From: an uncultured Acidimicrobiia bacterium
GTDB lineage: Bacteria; Acidobacteriota; Terriglobia; Versatilivoradales; Versatilivoraceae
Length of the DNA stretch: 64,000 nt
NCBI GenBank assembly: GCA_963786955.1
Contig: CAWBAT010000005.1
Coordinates: 768,001-832,000, forward strand
Direction: 5' to 3'
Positions 3,102-30,447 of this stretch are shown here, piece after piece; the stretch's first letter is position 1; the number at the start of each line of letters is the position of its first letter. The translations under genes were made by a program, and so were the position numbers. Under the pieces are notes generated by a model, which did not search any database, was not told the DNA's origin, and worked only from the letters and a program-made list of their open reading frames with translations.

Positions 3102-3262
3102 GAGGGATTGGTCGAGGACAAGTGGTGAGTACTGGGCAATCTATCGAAGCTGCCCATTTGATACTGGGCTGACTGGCCGGCCACTCAAAAAAGGCCGGCC
3201 GAAGTTAAGGTGCCATGAGCGCTAACTTTAAAGTTCTGTCGCGAACTTGCATACAGAAAAGC

Positions 3263-3401
3263 GAAACGCCGCGGGACGGCGCCAAGAACACAATAGCAGC
3301 AGAACCTGAGGCCGCCGGAGTGCTTTCAACAATGTCTTTGGGTACTTCGTCGGCAGTCACGATTAGCTGTACCTTGGCGATCTTTGCGTTCCTGGCGTTT
3401 C
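3263..3401. mobile_element. 9-mer-arm element copy (MITE-like), 139 bp
   Basis: Degenerate left arm GAAACGCCGCGGGACGGCGCCAAG (3263-3286); right arm CTTGGCGAT CTTTGCGTT CCTGGCGTT TC (3373-3401). Confidence 0.65.
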
Positions 3402-3432
3402 CATCAGCCGATTAAGCGCTGTCTCAAGCGAG

Positions 3433-8919: not shown

Positions 8920-8970
8920 GGTCGAACCCTGAAGAACTGAGTTTCTTCGCGGGTGGACCCCAAAAAGATG

Positions 8971-9031
8971 GAAACGCCAAGAACGCTAAGATCGCCAAGT
9001 TTCCGCCGCTTTTCTTGGGCCTTGGCGTTTC
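8971..9031. mobile_element. 9-mer-arm element copy, 61 bp
   Basis: GAAACGCCAAG AACGCTAAG ATCGCCAAG ... CTTGGGC CTTGGCGTTTC, lying between convergent genes. Confidence 0.7.
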
Positions 9032-9065
9032 GGTTTATTTACAACTAGGGACACAGGGCTGCGCC

Positions 9066-9661
9066 TTAACCGGGTTTGGAAGTGGCTTGTTCGATGAGCC
9101 TCCGGGTCGCCTCGTCGAGATCCAATTGCAGAGCCATTCGCGTGCCCCTTGGAGCTCATTTTTTTCCAGGTTTTTTGAATGATCTCGACGAGTTTAGCTT
9201 CTTCTGTTTTTTCAGAGAACTCGGCAAATTGGCTTTCTAGAAAGACTAGACAGAGGGCGTCCTCCAACACTTGTGTCTCAAGGTCATGTCGGATGTCTTG
9301 TTTCAAGTTAAGTTCCCGGACTCGTTGAACGATTTCTTCAGAATAATGGAGGGCCCGAAGTGTTTCCTCCGCTCGGGAGGCATGATATTGGGACAGCTTT
9401 TTGCGCCAGTTCAAATATCCAACCCTTCCGGGGGGAAAGTCGCTTCGCGGAATTTTCCACCGCTCCAGATGCTGGGAGCGGGCGGCCAGCCGCAGGGCCT
9501 CGGAGGCGTTGGGTTGGAGTTGCAATACCCAACGCGTCAGTTCCCGGGCATACCACAATTCTCTGGGATGCTCCTGTCCCTGAATTCGCAGAACGTTCGG
9601 GTCTTGTCGCATTCAAGTAATCAAAAGCCTGAATGGCTTGTTGAAAGAGATCTTCCTGCAT
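9066..9661 (-). CDS. DUF4202 family protein (frameshifted)
   Basis: ASEALRLAARSQHLERWKIPRSDFP, LEDALCLVFLE, IIQKTWKKMS. Confidence 0.8.
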
Positions 9662-12700: not shown

Positions 12701-13017
12701 TCAGGATTCACAAACTGGGAAAACTGATTGGGAAACGCTCATGGGGCGGCGTCGTCGGGATTCGTGGAACGCTTCCGCTTGTCGACGGAGGATATTTGAA
12801 CCGTCCGGAATTTTCGGTTTTTGATCTGTCCGGGAAAGAATGGGTGATTGAGGGTCATGGCGTTGATCCGGATATCGTTGTGGATAACGATCCTGCCAAA
12901 GAATACGTTGGGATTGACGAACAACTCGACAAAGCCATTGCCGTCATCCTGGAAGAGATGAAGAAACAGCCCGTGAAACTGCCCACCCCTCCGCCTTATC
13001 CGGATAAGAGCAAGTGA
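9741..13017 (+). CDS. Tricorn protease (S41 family; PD40 propellers + PDZ), multiple frameshifts
   Basis: ARLLRFPAI, RTWKRYRGG, GELNAGHTYV, VGYIHIP, DVRGNGGG, SASDGD, GKRSWGGVVG, GHGVDPDIVV. Confidence 0.9.
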
Positions 13018-13035
13018 GCAGCCTGCCTGTCGTCT

Positions 13036-13142
13036 GGTAGCCACGATTGCCGTGTCTTCCGCGGCTATCGTGGGGTAATATCATCGAATCCCGTCCCAAC
13101 CCACGATTGAACTCCAAAAAGCCGAGTTCAATCGTGGCTACC
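13036..13142. repeat. GTAG-type REP doublet (REPIN-like)
   Basis: Perfect outer IR GGTAGCCACGATTG / CAATCGTGGCTACC; each half is itself a hairpin; lies between convergent genes. Confidence 0.7.
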
Positions 13143-13199
13143 TAATGGGACATAAGCCCCACCTTTGTGGCTCTCAGCTTCTGAAACTGTCAGGTATTA

Positions 13200-14536
13200 C
13201 TAATGTGAATCTTTTGGTTCAGGAAGACTCAACGCAACGGCGAGAGCAGGCAGAAAGAGGAAAGACGCATAGAACAGGGCAACGCGAAAACTGCCAACCT
13301 TGGAAAAAAGTCCGAAAAATACAGTGCCCAAAGCAGCCGCGATTCGTCCAATGTTATAACAGAACCCCGCTCCGGTCGTGCGCAGGAGAGTCGGGAAAAG
13401 AGGCGGGAGATACATCGTAAATAAGCCAAAGACACCTGAACAGAACCCAATCAAAGGCAGCCAGAGAAGGAGAGCAACGGTGGTCGCGCGGGACGCTATA
13501 GGCACCAAACATGGCCAGAAAAAAACACAGAACACAATAACGCAATACTCCTCCGGTATCCGAATAGGCTGGCAATCCATCCCGCAAAAAAATTTCCTCC
13601 CATCGAAGCCACGACGACGATGAAGAAAAACTTGCTCACCAGTTGCTCTCGATCATAGACCGTCCAGGTTGCCAATTCCGGAAGATTTCGCACATGCTGC
13701 TGGTTCCAGAACATGGAATGCCCACCAGGCGGTCAAGGAAAGAGAACAGACCAGGATCGTCTTGACAGTAATGGGGAGCACCTCCCCTCGAAAAAGCTCC
13801 ATAATCGAAGGTTCATGATGCTGCGCTTTGAGCTTTCGCGGCGTGCCACTCTGCCGGCTCAGGAACGGCTCGTCGAATCCAGAACACCAAAATGGCGGGA
13901 AGAATGCCGACGAAGAAAAACCCAGCGCGGATTCTGGTCCGCCATGACGTAAACGGTTACACACGCCAGCAACACGCCGATATTCACGCCGGTTTGAAGG
14001 ACGGCCGCAATCCAAGGACGCCACCGGCGCGGCCAGGTTTCCGACAAGAGAGCCGACCCAACGGCCCACTCGCCTCCAATTCCTAACGCCGCGAGGAAAC
14101 GAAAAATTAATAAATGCCACCAAGTCTGAGCAAAAGAAGAGAGGCCGGTAAAAATAGCATAGGTCAGAATCGTCAAGGAAAGCGCCCGGCTTCGTCCGAG
14201 AAGATCTCCGATTCGGCCAAAGAAACCGCCTCCCAAAGCCCATCCGATGAGGAAGGCTGCTTGAATCCAGGAACTGTACAGTTTGACCTTGGGGTCCGCG
14301 AAGCTATGCACCTGCAGCAACTGCATCACAAACGGGGCCGCCACGAGCGTGTAGAGATGCATGTCCAGTCCATCAAATAACCAGCCGAGCCAGGCTGCTG
14401 TGCCGGACTTCCATTGTTGGGAAGAGATTTCACTGAGACGAGTCGCTTCGGGGATCGTGGCCGGACGAGTCTCCTTTTCTACGAGCCTTCGATCTGGAGT
14501 CTCTCGCAAGAAATTTTCTGCCTCACGGTTTGCCAA
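13200..14536 (-). CDS. MFS transporter (frameshifted)
   Basis: AWLGWLFDGLD, GRIGDLLGRSR, FRFLAALGIGGEW, FPTLLRTTGAGFCYNIGR. Confidence 0.85.
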
Positions 14537-14724
14537 GTGACCCTCCGGGCTGATGATTTGATGGGATGGCGAGAAGTTCGAGTTGGAACGAGAAAACTAA
14601 CATTAACACAAACTCCTCATGAATATTCAATTCATCGGGCGGTGAGATGAAAAAAATTCAGAACTGATTACCCAACGAGACGGCACGAGAAATATCAAAA
14701 AACATGAGTAAGCTGGAAAGATTT

Positions 14725-14861
14725 GAACCGCTAAGATCGCCAAGAAAAGCAACGAAAACTCATCTCCAGTGAAATTTCATTCCTGCATATCCAAGAGTTC
14801 CCCAATGAAGCTTTAACCCCAATGTTTTTACTCTTGGCGCACTTGGCGTTCTTGGCGTTTC
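14725..14861. mobile_element. 9-mer-arm element copy, 137 bp
   Basis: GAACCGCTAAG ATCGCCAAG ... CTTGGCGCA CTTGGCGTT CTTGGCGTT TC; spacer homologous to the copy at 20027-20163. Confidence 0.75.
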
Positions 14862-14870
14862 TGAATCTCT

Positions 14871-14979
14871 CTAGTACAAACTTGCAGAATTCTGTGTTGC
14901 AGTTGGCCCCGCTATTTAAGCCCGGGGTCAACGACCCCAGCTACAACAATTGCCGCGAATTTGTGCAATTTAGTACTAG
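14871..14979. repeat. CTAGTAC-ended inverted-repeat element enclosing a GTAG REP-like hairpin
   Basis: Imperfect TIR CTAGTACAAACTTGCAGAATTC / GAATTTGTGCAATTTAGTACTAG; internal GGGGTC-AAC-GACCCCAGCTAC. Confidence 0.55.
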
Positions 14980-15001
14980 AACTCCCCTGCCAGGGCTTGA
15001 T

Positions 15002-20026: not shown

Positions 20027-20163
20027 GAAACGCCAGGAACGCAAAGACCGCCAAGAATCAATGCATTAGAGCCAACACCTTGCTGAGATTGTTTTTGGAT
20101 GAATAGGATTGAATTGCGTTGGAGATGAGTTTCAGTTGCTTTCCTTGGCGTCCTTGGCGGTTT
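20027..20163. mobile_element. 9-mer-arm element copy, 137 bp (inverted relative to 14725-14861)
   Basis: GAAACGCCAGG AACGCAAAG ACCGCCAAG ... CTTGGCGTC CTTGGCGGTTT. Confidence 0.75.
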
Positions 20164-24658: not shown

Positions 24659-24726
24659 GAGTGGCGAACAGGCCATTGAATATGTCGGCTATTGCACTCC
24701 CCTTTAGCCTTCACTCGTAAAGATTT

Positions 24727-24902
24727 GAACCGCCAAGAAAAGCTAAAAAGGCTGAAGCTGTCACTTACGACTTCGGCTCCAGCTCACTTCTTTCAGGCCA
24801 ATTTGAGATCCGACTTATCCAAACAAAAGGGTTTCAGTAAGGTCCTTGCCTTCAGTCTTTCTTTCTTGGCACACTTTGCGTCCTTGGCGTTCTTAGCGAT
24901 TC
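24727..24902. mobile_element. 9-mer-arm element copy, 176 bp
   Basis: GAACCGCCAAG ... CTTGGCACA CTTTGCGTC CTTGGCGTT CTTAGCGAT TC; same AAAGATTT prefix as the 14725 copy. Confidence 0.7.
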
Positions 24903-24930
24903 CTTCATTTGTTTGGCCCAATAAAGACTA

Positions 24931-25219
24931 GAACCGCCAAGAGCGCCAAGAAAAGGGTCGAAAACCTGGACCCCCTGGCCCATTAGTCCTATTGGTCGAA
25001 TGGCCCTTCCCGATGATTTCTGAGAACTCGCTGGATGCCGTCGCGCACGGGGTGCGCGCCTTACTACAGCGACCACCGCTTCCCCCTCCTTAGCTAAGGA
25101 GGGGAACCAAAATTGAGTTCGTTCACAACTTCCTCCACTGGAGGGGAATTGAGGTAGGTCCGCTTCTTCATTCGCCCCAAGAATTCCGGCTTGGGGGAAC
25201 TTTGCGTCCTTGGCGTTTC
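24931..25219. mobile_element. 9-mer-arm element retaining the 3' end of a GxxExxY gene plus an inserted palindrome
   Basis: Arms GAACCGCCAAG AGCGCCAAG / CTTGGGGGAA CTTTGCGTC CTTGGCGTTTC. 25029-25047 is identical to 27403-27421. Minus strand reads RDGIQRVLRNHREGPFDQ*. Confidence 0.8.
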
Positions 25220-25379
25220 GATCTTTTGAGATACTTGGGAACAACAATGATTCAATCTTGAGTGGATGTTCATAAGCAAACGTCACATGCTAGGCATTTC
25301 ACGCATTTCGCCGTTTCATGAACAGTGAGAACGGCTTCCCCGCAAGATTTGACAATAGGTTGGGAGAGCATCTTTCCGT

Positions 25380-25988
25380 TTACTTCGACACAAAGGAATT
25401 CCCTTTAATATAAAACCTCCATGATTTTGAAAGCCACGGCTCTGGTGTCTTGCCGAGTCCGATCCGAGGAGAAGCGATGATCTCTCTGTCATCGGGTTTT
25501 ACTCCGGGTTCGATCCTGAGCGAAGATGCTTTCTCACAAAAATCTAAACCATTTTCAGCTTTTTGGATGGCCATCGCCTGAGTGAGACGACCGGGGCCCT
25601 TGCAGAGCAGCGAAATCTCGTTCATTCCACGCAAATGGCGCATGACCTCGATTCCTTCGATGGGTTCAACGGCTCGAATGAGGACCGCTGCCGGAAACCC
25701 TTCCTTCTCTGCCACGACGTTTAGCATCCAATGCATCCCATAAGTAAAGTAAACGTAAGCAAAGCCGGGAGGCCCATACATGATTTCCGTTCTCTTTGTC
25801 CGGCCAGCTTTAGCATGACAGGCGAGGTCCTCTTCCCCTCGATACGCCTCTGCTTCAACAATTCTGCCCGAGAGCCGAGTCCCATTCGATTGCCGGACCA
25901 GCAGACACCCAAGCAAATCGCGAGCCACAACTTCTGTGCGGCGCAGGAAGAAGGAGCGTGGTATTGAAGTTTGTGAATTCCGTCTCAT
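25380..25988 (-). CDS. mpg: DNA-3-methyladenine glycosylase (MPG/AAG type)
   Basis: VARDLLG, GRIVEAEAY, YVYFTYGMH, AVLIRAVEP, GPGRL, PRIG. Confidence 0.92.
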   Translation of the reverse strand: MRRNSQTSIPRSFFLRRTEVVARDLLGCLLVRQSNGTRLSGRIVEAEAYRGEEDLACHAKAGRTKRTEIMYGPPGFAYVYFTYGMHWMLNVVAEKEGFPAAVLIRAVEPIEGIEVMRHLRGMNEISLLCKGPGRLTQAMAIQKAENGLDFCEKASSLRIEPGVKPDDREIIASPRIGLGKTPEPWLSKSWRFYIKGNSFVSK

Positions 25989-27066: not shown

Positions 27067-27300
27067 GGCAGGGAAGTTTTTAACGGGGGAAAATGCGGAC
27101 GAGACGCCTGCGCCCCCGGTTTGATTCATCGAATTGAAAATGGCTCCATAAACTCCGTGCGACAGAGTTATTATACATCCAGCAACCCTTTATACTGACT
27201 ACTGCGAACGTGCAAAGGTTTGCGGAAATTGCCGTAGCCGAGCACGTTGACCAATGCGCGCTAACTTTATAAGGCTTTCCTCGCCTGCCGCAGGAAGAAC

Positions 27301-27802
27301 GAAACGCCAAGAGCGCCAAGTACACCAAGAAAAGGGGATACACCTCGGTCAGCGGCCTGATCTTAACCTACCCGTAGTTCTTCAGGATGCTTTCTGGCTA
27401 CCCGCTGGATGCCGTCGCGCAACAAAATCGCGTTCCAATTGATGATCAACCCCAAAGACAAGCCGCTCAATTTCAAGTATGTCAGCAACTGAGCGAGGTG
27501 GATGGGGAGAACTTTTTCGACCGTCTGGTTTTCCACCAACACCAATTGGTCGATTCGCATGTCGATGCGGCAACCGACCTCAATAAGCACCCCTGCAAAC
27601 TCTAGCGGAAAAGCGACTTGGCATTCGACCTGGTGGCGACGTCTTTGGAGCTCTTGTGCCAGACAAGCCTGATAGGCCGATTCCAGCAGCCCGGGCCCCA
27701 AGGCGCGAGGCACCCTGAGTACAGCGTAACAATATCCTGAGCTACTTCGTCGGCGGACATGAAGGCTCCAACTCTTGGCGAACTTTGCGTTCTTGGCGTT
27801 TC
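27301..27802. mobile_element. GxxExxY cassette flanked by inverted 9-mer-array arms (putative full-length element)
   Basis: Left arm GAAACGCCAAG AGCGCCAAG TACACCAAG A; right arm reverse complement GAAACGCCAAG AACGCAAAG TTCGCCAAG A. Confidence 0.75.
27363..27760 (-). CDS. GxxExxY protein (PD-(D/E)XK-like nuclease family); 1-bp frameshift near 27728 and atypical residues, possibly decayed
   Basis: LGPGLLESAYQACL, RIDM, LVE, HLAQLLTYLKLSGLSLGLIINW, DGIQRV. Likely start MSADEVAQDIV after GGAG. Confidence 0.85.
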
Positions 27803-27955
27803 CCAATTCTGGGCCTCATCTGCTCAACCGAGGATCCCCGAATGAACCCATCATCCAAGCTTTGGTTAGCACTTATGGGTTGTTGACCCTGGCCGACCCC
27901 AGAGGAGCCATGGATGACACGATCTTCTGATACTTAGGATTGGCTCCAACCTGCG

Positions 27956-29320
27956 TCAGCCGGTCACAGCCCGGATGCTCTCGTATGTGGCTTCGAGTAA
28001 TTCACTCAGCTGTTTCTTCGTGATGCTGAGCGGTGGCATGATGACGATCACATCCCCTAAGGGACGAAGAATAACACCCCTTTGGCGGGCCTCCAAGATC
28101 ACTTGGTGGCCAACACGCGCATTTGAGGGATAGGGAGTGCGCTGCTTCTTGTCTCGGACCAGCTCAATCCCTACGATGAAACCGGCTTGCCTAATATCTC
28201 CCACATGAGGAAGCATCTCAAACGCTTTGAGCTGATTTGAAAGATAGCGGATTTTAGGTTGGAGGCGACGTAATGTTCTCTCCTCTCGAAATATCCGCAG
28301 GTTCGCGAGTGCGGCGGCACACGCCACCGGGTTACCGGTATAGGTGTGGCCGTGAAAAAAGGACTTAAACTCCGAATGCTCCCCCAGGAAGCCATCAAAG
28401 ATCTCCTCAGTGGTCAGCGTCGCAGCTAATGGCAAGATACCTCCGCTGAGTCCTTTGGCGAGAGCTAAAAAATCCGGACGGACTTTTTCACGCTCGCAGG
28501 CAAACATCGTCCCAGTCCGTCCAAAGCCTGTTGCCACTTCATCCAGAATCAGATGAACCTGGTATTTCCGGCATTCTCTTTCAATCTGTTTCAAAAACCC
28601 CGGCGGCATGGTCAGCATTCCGGCAGCCCCTTGGATGGCGGGTTCAACGACGACCGCACAGACTTCCTGGTGATGAGCTTGCAGGGTTTCTCTAAAATCC
28701 TTGAAGCAATAAATGTCGCACGAATGCACTTCCTTCCCGAAGGGGCAACGATAACAAGACGGGTAGAAGGATTTGATCGAATGAAACAACAAGGGCTTGA
28801 ACATCTTGTGGAATAGGTCAACCCCGCCCAAACTCACCGAGCCAAGAGTGTCTCCGTGGTAGGCATTGGTAAAGGAAACAAAGGTGCGTTTTCGCGAATG
28901 GGCCTTTCCTTTTTGCCTCCAATATTGGAACGACATCTTCAGTGCCACTTCCACTGCCGTTGAGCCATCATCCGAATAAAATACTCTGGAAAGATTCGCT
29001 GGTGCGAATCGCAACAGTGCTTCTGCCAGTTCGATGGCAGGAATGTTCGACAGTCCGAGAAAGGTGCTGTGATCTAGTCGGCTGACTTGTTTTCGAACTG
29101 CTTGAATCAGGGTGGGATGACGATGGCCGTGAATATTAGCCCACAACGAGGAAACGCCATCCATGTATTTCTTTCCTTGGACGTCGTAGAGATATACGCC
29201 TTTAGCTCGTTCAATCACGAGCTGAGGGGCATTCTGCCATTCCCTCATTTGAGTGAAGGGATGCCACAAGTGAGACTTGTCAGCAGATTCGTAATCTTTA
29301 GGGGTGCGTTTGGATTTCAT
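27956..29320 (-). CDS. bioA: Adenosylmethionine-8-amino-7-oxononanoate aminotransferase
   Basis: LWHPFTQM, DGVSSLW, SDDGSTAVEVALKM, DEVATGFGRTG, FFHGHTYTGNP. Confidence 0.95.
   Translation of the reverse strand: MKSKRTPKDYESADKSHLWHPFTQMREWQNAPQLVIERAKGVYLYDVQGKKYMDGVSSLWANIHGHRHPTLIQAVRKQVSRLDHSTFLGLSNIPAIELAEALLRFAPANLSRVFYSDDGSTAVEVALKMSFQYWRQKGKAHSRKRTFVSFTNAYHGDTLGSVSLGGVDLFHKMFKPLLFHSIKSFYPSCYRCPFGKEVHSCDIYCFKDFRETLQAHHQEVCAVVVEPAIQGAAGMLTMPPGFLKQIERECRKYQVHLILDEVATGFGRTGTMFACEREKVRPDFLALAKGLSGGILPLAATLTTEEIFDGFLGEHSEFKSFFHGHTYTGNPVACAAALANLRIFREERTLRRLQPKIRYLSNQLKAFEMLPHVGDIRQAGFIVGIELVRDKKQRTPYPSNARVGHQVILEARQRGVILRPLGDVIVIMPPLSITKKQLSELLEATYESIRAVTG

Positions 29321-30357: not shown

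Positions 30358-30447
<90 letters not shown>

Follow-up and report, generated by a model that had tools for sequence, protein, structure and literature searches.

The DNA considered here is a window of 64,000 nucleotides from an uncultured bacterium of the Acidobacteriota (contig CAWBAT010000005.1, positions 768,001–832,000). An Acido-Lenti-1 RNA match in a relative within this phylum and the occurrence of matching sequences in sediment metagenomes agree with this assignment. At its positions 27301–27802, a small gene of the GxxExxY family (PF13366) is enclosed between inverted arrays of a 9-nucleotide repeat, and this armed cassette is probably one decayed copy of a widespread class. The reading favoured here, put forward tentatively and at a little less than an even chance, is that of a polar, selfish gene cassette with the arms serving as the cargo protein's own cis-site, i.e. 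a sister class of those intervening sequences (IVS) of 23S rRNA that bear an open reading frame (ORF). Along the coding strand, such a cassette would usually consist of three tandem words, the GxxExxY gene and then the inverted words, the word being NNCGCCAAG in the window and C-R-C-N-R-A-K, with a period of 8–10, family-wide. As selfish insertable DNA it would reside mostly between co-directional host genes and in their sense. The word arrays are taken for a putative cis-site, acting on DNA or RNA; the period of the arms is cargo-specific, and the type of word tracks the clades of the protein and not the host.

The two arms of the window cassette—the left one at 27301–27330 (plus strand) and the right one at 27773–27802 (minus strand)—are 30 nucleotides long each, 87% complementary to each other and 442 nucleotides apart, and both are composed of three 9-mers with the core CGCCAAG. 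The gene lies on the minus strand; its sense strand carries the word 5' of the gene in the right arm and the word's complement 3' of the gene in the left one. The pattern CGCCAAG-N2-CGCCAAG, with at most one mismatch, was found 16 times in the window against a mean of 0.01 in shuffled sequences (none of 100 shuffles reached 16), which rules out chance or artefact as an explanation of the arms. All 16 matches fall within seven armed elements listed in a preliminary description of this DNA made from the sequence alone, so that both the inverted arrays around the GxxExxY gene and the six further elements with arms of the same type are real. The cassette is situated between a TolB-like and a bioA-like gene, and, as the preliminary description had also stated, its 9-mer arms show no target-site duplication. 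A sigma-70-like promoter was not found within 27100–28000, and the cassette is therefore probably transcribed by read-through; the same interval contains a single terminator-like match, at the level of shuffled sequences. Among the Rfam families searched for in positions 1–32000 of the window, none was detected except one tRNA (30358–30444, RF00005, 57 bits), and no rRNA.

The evidence for a class of such cassettes comes from a survey of 121 genomes, i.e. 120 sampled genomes of the phylum plus the present one, in which the GxxExxY gene was compared with the gene for a four-helix-bundle protein (TIGR02436, the '23S rRNA intervening sequence protein' family). The former is present in 41 and the latter in 64 of the 121 genomes; the unpublished genomes G077 and G053 are counted in both figures but enter no other result. 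With 29 loci per family analysed and those interrupted by a contig end or by N dropped (one GxxExxY and three four-helix-bundle loci), arms scoring above every shuffle were found at 23 of 28 GxxExxY loci, in agreement with the enrichment anticipated in the preliminary description, and at 22 of 26 four-helix-bundle loci. The periods of the arms, however, differ between the two families: 8 (four loci), 9 (ten), 10 (seven) and 11 (two), but never 7, around GxxExxY genes, versus 7 (16 loci), 8 (four) and 9 (two) around four-helix-bundle genes (Fisher p = 1e-7, related genomes not being independent of each other). The same holds within the genome of the window, where all eight four-helix-bundle genes have arms with period 7, whereas every other intact GxxExxY paralog is enclosed by a set of inverted arrays of its own, with a period of 8, 9 or 10.

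The words themselves are distinctive, too. At least four 7-mers of the CRCNRAK type and of one class occur in the flanks of 27 out of 38 GxxExxY genes, versus none of 26 four-helix-bundle genes. Mapped on the tree of the GxxExxY proteins, the word class requires seven changes compared with a mean of 11.4 after shuffling (a value reached by one of 300 shuffles), the deep split of the tree (support 97) separating the GAT/AAT words (6/6) from the GAG/AAG/GGG ones (21/21). The word also recurs beyond the phylum, as revealed by tblastn against plasmid records, seven of which were inspected. Clear arms are present in two of them, from Bacteroides finegoldii (TTCACCACAGAGG..., period 9, between radA and a flavin adenine dinucleotide-dependent gene) and from Bernardetia (CRCNRAK-type words); partial words accompany the gene in the records from Treponema, Gemmatirosa and Fusobacteria, and none flank it in those from Persicobacter and Prevotella. 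It should be mentioned that on the plasmid of Fusobacteria bacterium ZRK30 (about 1100–1640) the GxxExxY gene is placed between direct, not inverted, 22-nucleotide repeats (CAGATTTAATCCGTGTACCTAT), which include the complement of the CACGGAT word.

The cassettes are polar. The word occupies the sense strand upstream of the gene at 20 loci, is flipped at two and arranged otherwise at five, three word units per side being the commonest arrangement. In 62 of 74 cases overall, the gene and the ORF upstream of it point in the same direction (23/28, 20/25, 11/13 and 8/8). In different hosts it sits between unrelated housekeeping genes, and none of the 54 sampled loci, including the 28 of the GxxExxY family, lies in rRNA.

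With regard to the cargo, the GxxExxY gene encodes a protein of roughly 125 residues, the predicted model of which has a pLDDT (predicted local distance difference test) of 97. Its best structural matches are Cas4 SSO0001 (E 7e-4, template modelling score 0.60), a restriction-endonuclease-like protein, lambda exonuclease, AddB and RecE, and judging from this model the protein would represent a minimal Cas4/RecB/lambda-exonuclease-like PD-(D/E)XK fold. The enzymes matched in this way act on the ends of DNA or on single strands. The sequence search for a solved structure yielded none, its best match (E 0.24) being irrelevant. D62, E72 and K74, and likewise G19, E22 and Y25, are invariant in 25 aligned sequences. 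The function of PF13366/GxxExxY was given as 'Unknown' in the 2012 survey of the PD-(D/E)XK superfamily (PMC3424549).

The copy of the gene present in the window looks defective. The longest open frame over its body (27363–27806, minus strand) starts at a TTG within the right arm and matches PF13366 with E 1.3e-28 and TIGR04256 with 102.4 bits (cut-off 35); the G-x-x-E-x-x-Y motif is present as GLLESAY. The family match (27399–27725) begins, nevertheless, only at profile position 9–10, and no start codon is in frame with a complete N-terminal helix: the ancestral ATG (27758–27760, minus strand; MSADEVAQDIV...) is now out of frame with the gene body through an apparent loss of one nucleotide at 27727/27728 (minus strand) in comparison with the intact copies, both in the alignment of copies and with respect to those of G002, a genome of the same genus; metagenome contigs keep the extra base. 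Moreover, the codon at 27525–27527 (minus strand) is CAG (Gln) in place of the family's invariant catalytic lysine of the E-x-K element, which is found in 25 of 25 aligned members. The region thus reads VENQ, versus VELK or VEIK in the intact paralogs and VENK in the copies of G002, leaving the catalytic D...E-x-K incomplete (E-N-Q). The window copy shares both the frameshift and the Lys-to-Gln substitution with the contig-4 copy (154750–155406), its sister in the tree of copies, suggesting that the two were copied from an already defective source. G002, on the other hand, possesses two copies of the window cassette family with an intact 132-codon frame and E-N-K, and with a dN/dS (ratio of non-synonymous to synonymous substitution rates) of 0.17 between them, they are evidently under purifying selection; the corresponding value between the window copy and its contig-4 sister is 0.52. 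The gene plus its arms had been regarded in the preliminary description as the autonomous unit; since the gene appears defective, this is unlikely for the window cassette, which is probably non-autonomous.

A blastn search of the 5.65-Mb genome (nine contigs; designated G000 below) with the segment 27150–27950 identified about ten composite copies, 79–92% identical to the window copy over 27237–27893. This search and the alignment of the copies indicate that the whole repeated unit reaches beyond the arms, to about 27231–27893, so that the 502-bp stretch between the outer ends of the arms is not, as had been thought, complete in itself and is nested between the inverted halves of an element of the repetitive extragenic palindromic (REP) type. 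The alignment of nine copies reveals its layers: an outer inverted pair, a non-complementary linker on each side and then the 9-mer arms. The outer pair consists on the left of a REP hairpin (GGGTC-N3-GACCC type) plus GCGCTAAC at 27231–27265, conserved in the nine aligned copies, and on the right of the mirroring GTTAGC.CTTAT plus REP hairpin at 27865–27893. The hairpin is the REP core of this genome, found at 422 sites with at most two mismatches; inverted copies of an abundant palindromic REP thus stand on both sides of the gene. A degenerate left outer arm of the enclosing element, here termed REP-B, was recognized at 27199–27252 by blastn to REP-B copies elsewhere in the genome, and a complete REP-B—a 109-nucleotide hairpin composite with the REP core—is located at 14871–14979 (25 matches of at least 85 nucleotides among 54 blastn hits). 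The loop triplets of the small outer hairpins, compared by eye in seven of the nine aligned copies, agree at 15 of 21 positions in direct but at 7 of 21 in inverted orientation, which is no more than suggestive of a target-site duplication at the outer hairpin.

The gene inside the window composite is the PF13366 one and not a transposase of the Y1 HUH (histidine-hydrophobe-histidine) type. A Y1_Tnp ORF on contig 6 (573854–574129) has one copy of the REP core (GGGGYC-AAC-GRCCCC) on one side and three on the other (573697–574418) and may be regarded as a candidate REP-associated tyrosine transposase (RAYT) for the REP family of this genome. In its outer layer the composite therefore resembles an ordinary REP/RAYT system, the armed cassette being apparently nested in a doublet of the REPIN (REP doublet forming hairpins) type. 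As for a transposase having the same ends as the cassette itself, 9-mer arms were seen within 500 nucleotides of none of the 20 Y1_Tnp (HUH) loci, the transposases of the DDE type not having been searched; one apparent arm match near a Y1_Tnp locus turned out to be a chance match inside a gene.

It is in this context that the first alternative has to be weighed, according to which the cassette is a passenger in the spacer of a REPIN-like doublet, its about ten copies having been produced by a RAYT-type HUH transposase acting on the outer REP hairpins, with the 9-mer arms an inherited decoration and the GxxExxY protein playing an unrelated, cellular role. All aligned copies do lie between inverted REP-B halves with the REP core as hairpin, the contig-6 transposase ORF has this core on both sides, and defective copies have still multiplied; at the contig-4 site, G002 lacks the cassette and REP-B alike, the composite thus behaving as one unit. 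Yet REP-B is missing around three of the armed short elements (8971, 20027 and 24727), gene and arms go together in the absence of this REP both in the phylum sample and in other phyla, and the Y1_Tnp match of the contig-6 ORF is weak (28.6 bits, E 5.5e-6), its RAYT status being only that of a candidate. As an account of the whole, the passenger explanation is considered unlikely; with respect to this genome alone, the enclosing REP element may have contributed as much as the nuclease to the multiplication of the cassette.

A comparison with the two sister species, G002 (84–91% identity to the window in the aligned flanking-gene blocks) and G001 (70–78%), uncovered presence/absence differences at several sites which show turnover, as the preliminary description had expected of close relatives. 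The site of the element 14725–14861 together with REP-B measures 359 nucleotides in G000, 26 in G002, where the element is absent, and 732 in G001, there filled with armed nested hairpins; similarly, the site of the two elements 24727–24902 and 24931–25219, both absent in G002, measures 719, 64 and 804 nucleotides, respectively, the last again with armed nested hairpins. The 61-bp arms-only element 8971–9031 is replaced by 230 unrelated nucleotides in G002 and by 640 nucleotides of armed nested hairpins in G001, and at the site of the element 20027–20163 there are 252 nucleotides without arms in G002. Conversely, at about 13014–13200 it is G000 that has 187 nucleotides without arms, versus an armed element (283 nucleotides) in G002 and an armed nested hairpin (248 nucleotides) in G001. 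The site of the element 3263–3401 is occupied in G002 as well. With regard to the composite copies, the contig-4 site holds cassette and REP-B in G000 but neither in G002, and the site of the full copy on contig 6 (821 nucleotides in G000) lacks 2.2 kb including the cassette in G002 and is empty, with 89 nucleotides, in G001. In G001, the sites matching 3108–3429, 8921–9113, 13019–13209, 14441–14999 and 24664–25385 contain GAAACGCCAAG-armed elements that enclose a further hairpin, itself armed with heptamers (TCATTGN type), i.e. a hairpin in a hairpin, sometimes in tandem.

The position of the window cassette itself offers no clean empty site: there is another gene in G002 and about 202 unrelated nucleotides, with neither cassette nor gene, in G001, and the exact ends of the cassette are therefore not definable from it. 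The other gene, coding for a protein of roughly 310 residues (C-terminus ...NNRWxLNLxDPDG..ELMEPF), takes the place of the cassette (27130–27955) in G002 and five further relatives, while neither is found in G001 or in three genomes from another genus. One internally deleted copy of G000 has its counterpart in an intact copy of G002 and has thus decayed in place.

The short elements were described originally as non-autonomous derivatives, and this is acceptable in part: some are internally deleted, and two of the six in the window keep remnants of the gene, 3263–3401 that of its 5' end beside the right arm and 24931–25219 that of its 3' end. They were also said to be all intergenic, which is nearly so, except that a 208-residue ORF (8986–9612, minus strand) reaches 46 nucleotides into the element 8971–9031, and this element may supply its last codons and stop. 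Among the composite copies, two sharing the internal deletion 27382–27607 are sisters according to both alignment and tree, which fits the copying of a derivative. The deletion 27439–27733 was considered as a proof of copying and discarded: its two holders (contig 6, 874021 and 1065566) are not sisters and the junction displays a CAAT microhomology, recurrent deletion being thus as likely. The same deletion was seen also in a contig from an RNA-library metagenome run, and several other metagenome deletion variants begin at the inner edge of the left arm (27320–27333). It should be pointed out that the sediment metagenomes were available as assembled contigs only, each with at most 0.36 of the sampled words, and that the contigs of the RNA-library run cover the element, which is not a proof of transcription, the uncovered parts carrying no meaning.

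The genome contains 57 arrays of CGC[ACT]AAG words in a strongly clustered distribution: three 30-kb bins account for 25 of them, and only 26 of 193 bins have any at all. The array-rich bins are those at 240–270 kb and 780–810 kb of contig 5 and at 240–270 kb of contig 3. The contig-3 cluster surrounds an intact paralog that belongs to another GxxExxY lineage but has the same word type (CGC[CA]AAG; 250961–251305), whereas the contig-5 cluster at 240–270 kb is without a GxxExxY gene.

The closest known design is that of the 23S rRNA IVS of Coxiella burnetii and Leptospira. According to the description of the Coxiella IVS (PMC4990558), an ORF for the four-helix-bundle protein S23p is enclosed in a 28-bp terminal stem and preceded by two or three heptamers in tandem, the first of which is where RNase III cuts. 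The window cassette, too, is an ORF enclosed by terminal inverted repeats able to form a long stem. Shared with the IVS (PMC4990558) are a small ORF that forms the loop between terminal inverted repeats of about 30 bp, arms containing short tandem repeats that vary in number from copy to copy, and the insertion inside a host transcription unit by something regarded as selfish. The four-helix-bundle genes of this genome and of the phylum exhibit the IVS design outside rRNA, and by analogy their cassettes would be an IVS-like thing outside rRNA and the GxxExxY cassettes their sister. The latter differ from the IVS in their cargo (a PD-(D/E)XK nuclease fold instead of S23p/four-helix bundle), in the word period (8–11, not mostly 7), in the conserved word CRCNRAK shared across hosts and in their location between protein-coding genes instead of helix 25 or 45 of 23S rRNA.

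The remaining systems resemble the cassette less closely. With REP/REPIN–RAYT it has in common a single small gene between inverted repeat copies that are also scattered gene-less through intergenic DNA, repeats that form hairpins and, in the case of the window composite, an outer layer that is a REP hairpin; its inner arms, however, are tandem arrays of a non-palindromic word and not single palindromes, and the enclosed enzyme is of a fold and chemistry other than those of RAYT. Miniature inverted-repeat transposable elements and DNA transposons with subterminal repeats are similar in their terminal inverted repeats, in their presence/absence polymorphism and in having multi-copy derivatives with internal deletions, some of which apparently preceded the copying, but differ from a cassette that has neither a transposase gene nor a clear target-site duplication at its arms, that has word arrays as arms and in which the orientation of the cargo is fixed relative to them. 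The short tandemly repeated repetitive sequences and the heptamer repeats of cyanobacteria and Xanthomonas are likewise transcribed intergenic tandem repeats of 7–9 nucleotides with a preferred small copy number, found between co-directional genes near stop or start codons; in the abstract of Rehm et al. (2015; PMC4692102) they are read as G-quadruplex-forming and linked to no gene, whereas the arrays described here are paired in inverted orientation on the two sides of genes of one particular family.

Under the favoured reading of a selfish cassette with its own cis-site, the nuclease would cut at or next to arms that have folded back into a hairpin or cruciform, and the unit would be copied by host repair or replication to new hairpin-prone intergenic sites, while the paired arms in the host transcript would let the insert loop out, as in rRNA intervening sequences. 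The CGCCAAG family of this genome, nested in the REP-type hairpin element, has reached about ten copies, for which the mobilising function may be provided in trans, either by the intact same-word paralog on contig 3 or by the REP/RAYT machinery, and the armed short elements would be in part internal-deletion derivatives.

A number of points weigh against this reading. The copy number in this genome may owe nothing to GxxExxY, given a REP-bounded composite and a RAYT-like gene with the same core. The four-helix-bundle genes, which do not encode a nuclease, have the same arm design; a nuclease is not needed for it, and the design alone therefore does not point to a nuclease-driven mechanism. The word and the gene being physically linked, co-inheritance alone would make them cluster on the tree, and ordinary bacterial neighbours are often co-oriented, too, which makes the orientation bias weaker than a null of 50% implies. 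Three G002 copies are orthologous to copies of G000, and much of the family is therefore old and static. The one-nucleotide deletion at 27727/27728 could be an assembly error, although the Lys-to-Gln substitution and the relaxed dN/dS speak for a genuine decay of the window gene. Lastly, there are the tests of the arms as an RNA stem: their mismatches are without an excess of G-U, with 41 G-U versus 38 A-C in the GxxExxY family (43 versus 44 in the four-helix-bundle one), transversions being just as common, which speaks against strong selection for such a stem; the compensatory changes among 12 copies (one double, two single restoring and several disruptions) are uninformative; and the RNA fold of the whole element is not better than those of shuffled sequences (z = -1.27).

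The last points bear also on a second alternative, a purely RNA-level intervening element, the arms of which would act only in the transcript, as a stem cut by RNase III that frees the cassette RNA and keeps the host operon workable, and would not be a site for the cargo protein. The layout of the heptamer-armed four-helix-bundle cassettes, matching that of the Coxiella IVS (PMC4990558), is in its favour, as are the polarity of the cassettes, mostly co-oriented with their neighbours, the lack of a recognized promoter of their own in the interval searched and the predicted fold of the element, in which the arms are paired. The mismatches without wobble bias, the unexceptional fold energy and the absence of rRNA locations tell against it; besides, a host RNase III would account neither for a cargo-specific period nor for a word that is conserved across phyla and follows the protein clades. 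This explanation is deemed quite unlikely. Very unlikely is the third one—a GxxExxY protein beneficial to the host in repair or defence, the arrays as its autoregulation operators and the short elements as decayed loci instead of mobile derivatives—which would suit the purifying selection on the intact copies and the word conserved beside the gene across phyla, but neither the many arms-only elements (57 arrays of this word type) polymorphic between species, nor several near-identical composites with common internal deletions, nor a gene wedged between unrelated housekeeping genes in different hosts.

Two further kinds of repeat-bracketed genes were encountered in the genome. Three of the four DUF559 (Vsr-like endonuclease) genes tested, those at 242511–242834 of contig 3, 57292–57612 of contig 7 and 101325–101645 of contig 5, are enclosed by strong inverted repeats, which are non-periodic and consist of a small CCCCTCC...GGAGGGG hairpin and a G-rich box with no short period. 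Apparent large cassettes around host genes (contig 4, 381225–382388; contig 5, 10686–11742; contig 8, 335490–336973) were rejected as new cargo, their arms being the heptamer arms of neighbouring cassettes in successive intergenic regions; the host genes bracketed in this way include a sugar isomerase-like gene with SIS/CBS domains and one for a membrane protein of roughly 330 residues.

In the literature searched, which did not cover subscription journals, no paper linking GxxExxY/PF13366 to flanking repeat arrays was found, and a cassette class with this period rule and conserved word is apparently undescribed. A wider reading, which has to be called doubtful, is that the GxxExxY and four-helix-bundle cassettes together form a single undescribed class of mobile elements without a transposase, each being one of its two branches, in which the cargo would recognize its own tandem word and drive the copying. 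If this were true, the length of the word would be set at about 7 nucleotides for the four-helix bundle and 8–10 for the nuclease, many unexplained bacterial repeats between genes (heptamers, octamers and nonamers), as well as the rRNA intervening sequences, would derive from this class, and the word CRCNRAK would be the first substrate for PF13366. The window copy is less interesting than its class. A word conserved beside the gene across phyla and tracking the protein clades represents a concrete, testable candidate substrate for PF13366; the periods of 7 versus 8–10 within the same genomes tie the rRNA intervening sequences and the short intergenic tandem repeats to specific proteins; and, with respect to annotation, such cassettes would explain many spurious small ORFs and repeats between the genes of operons.

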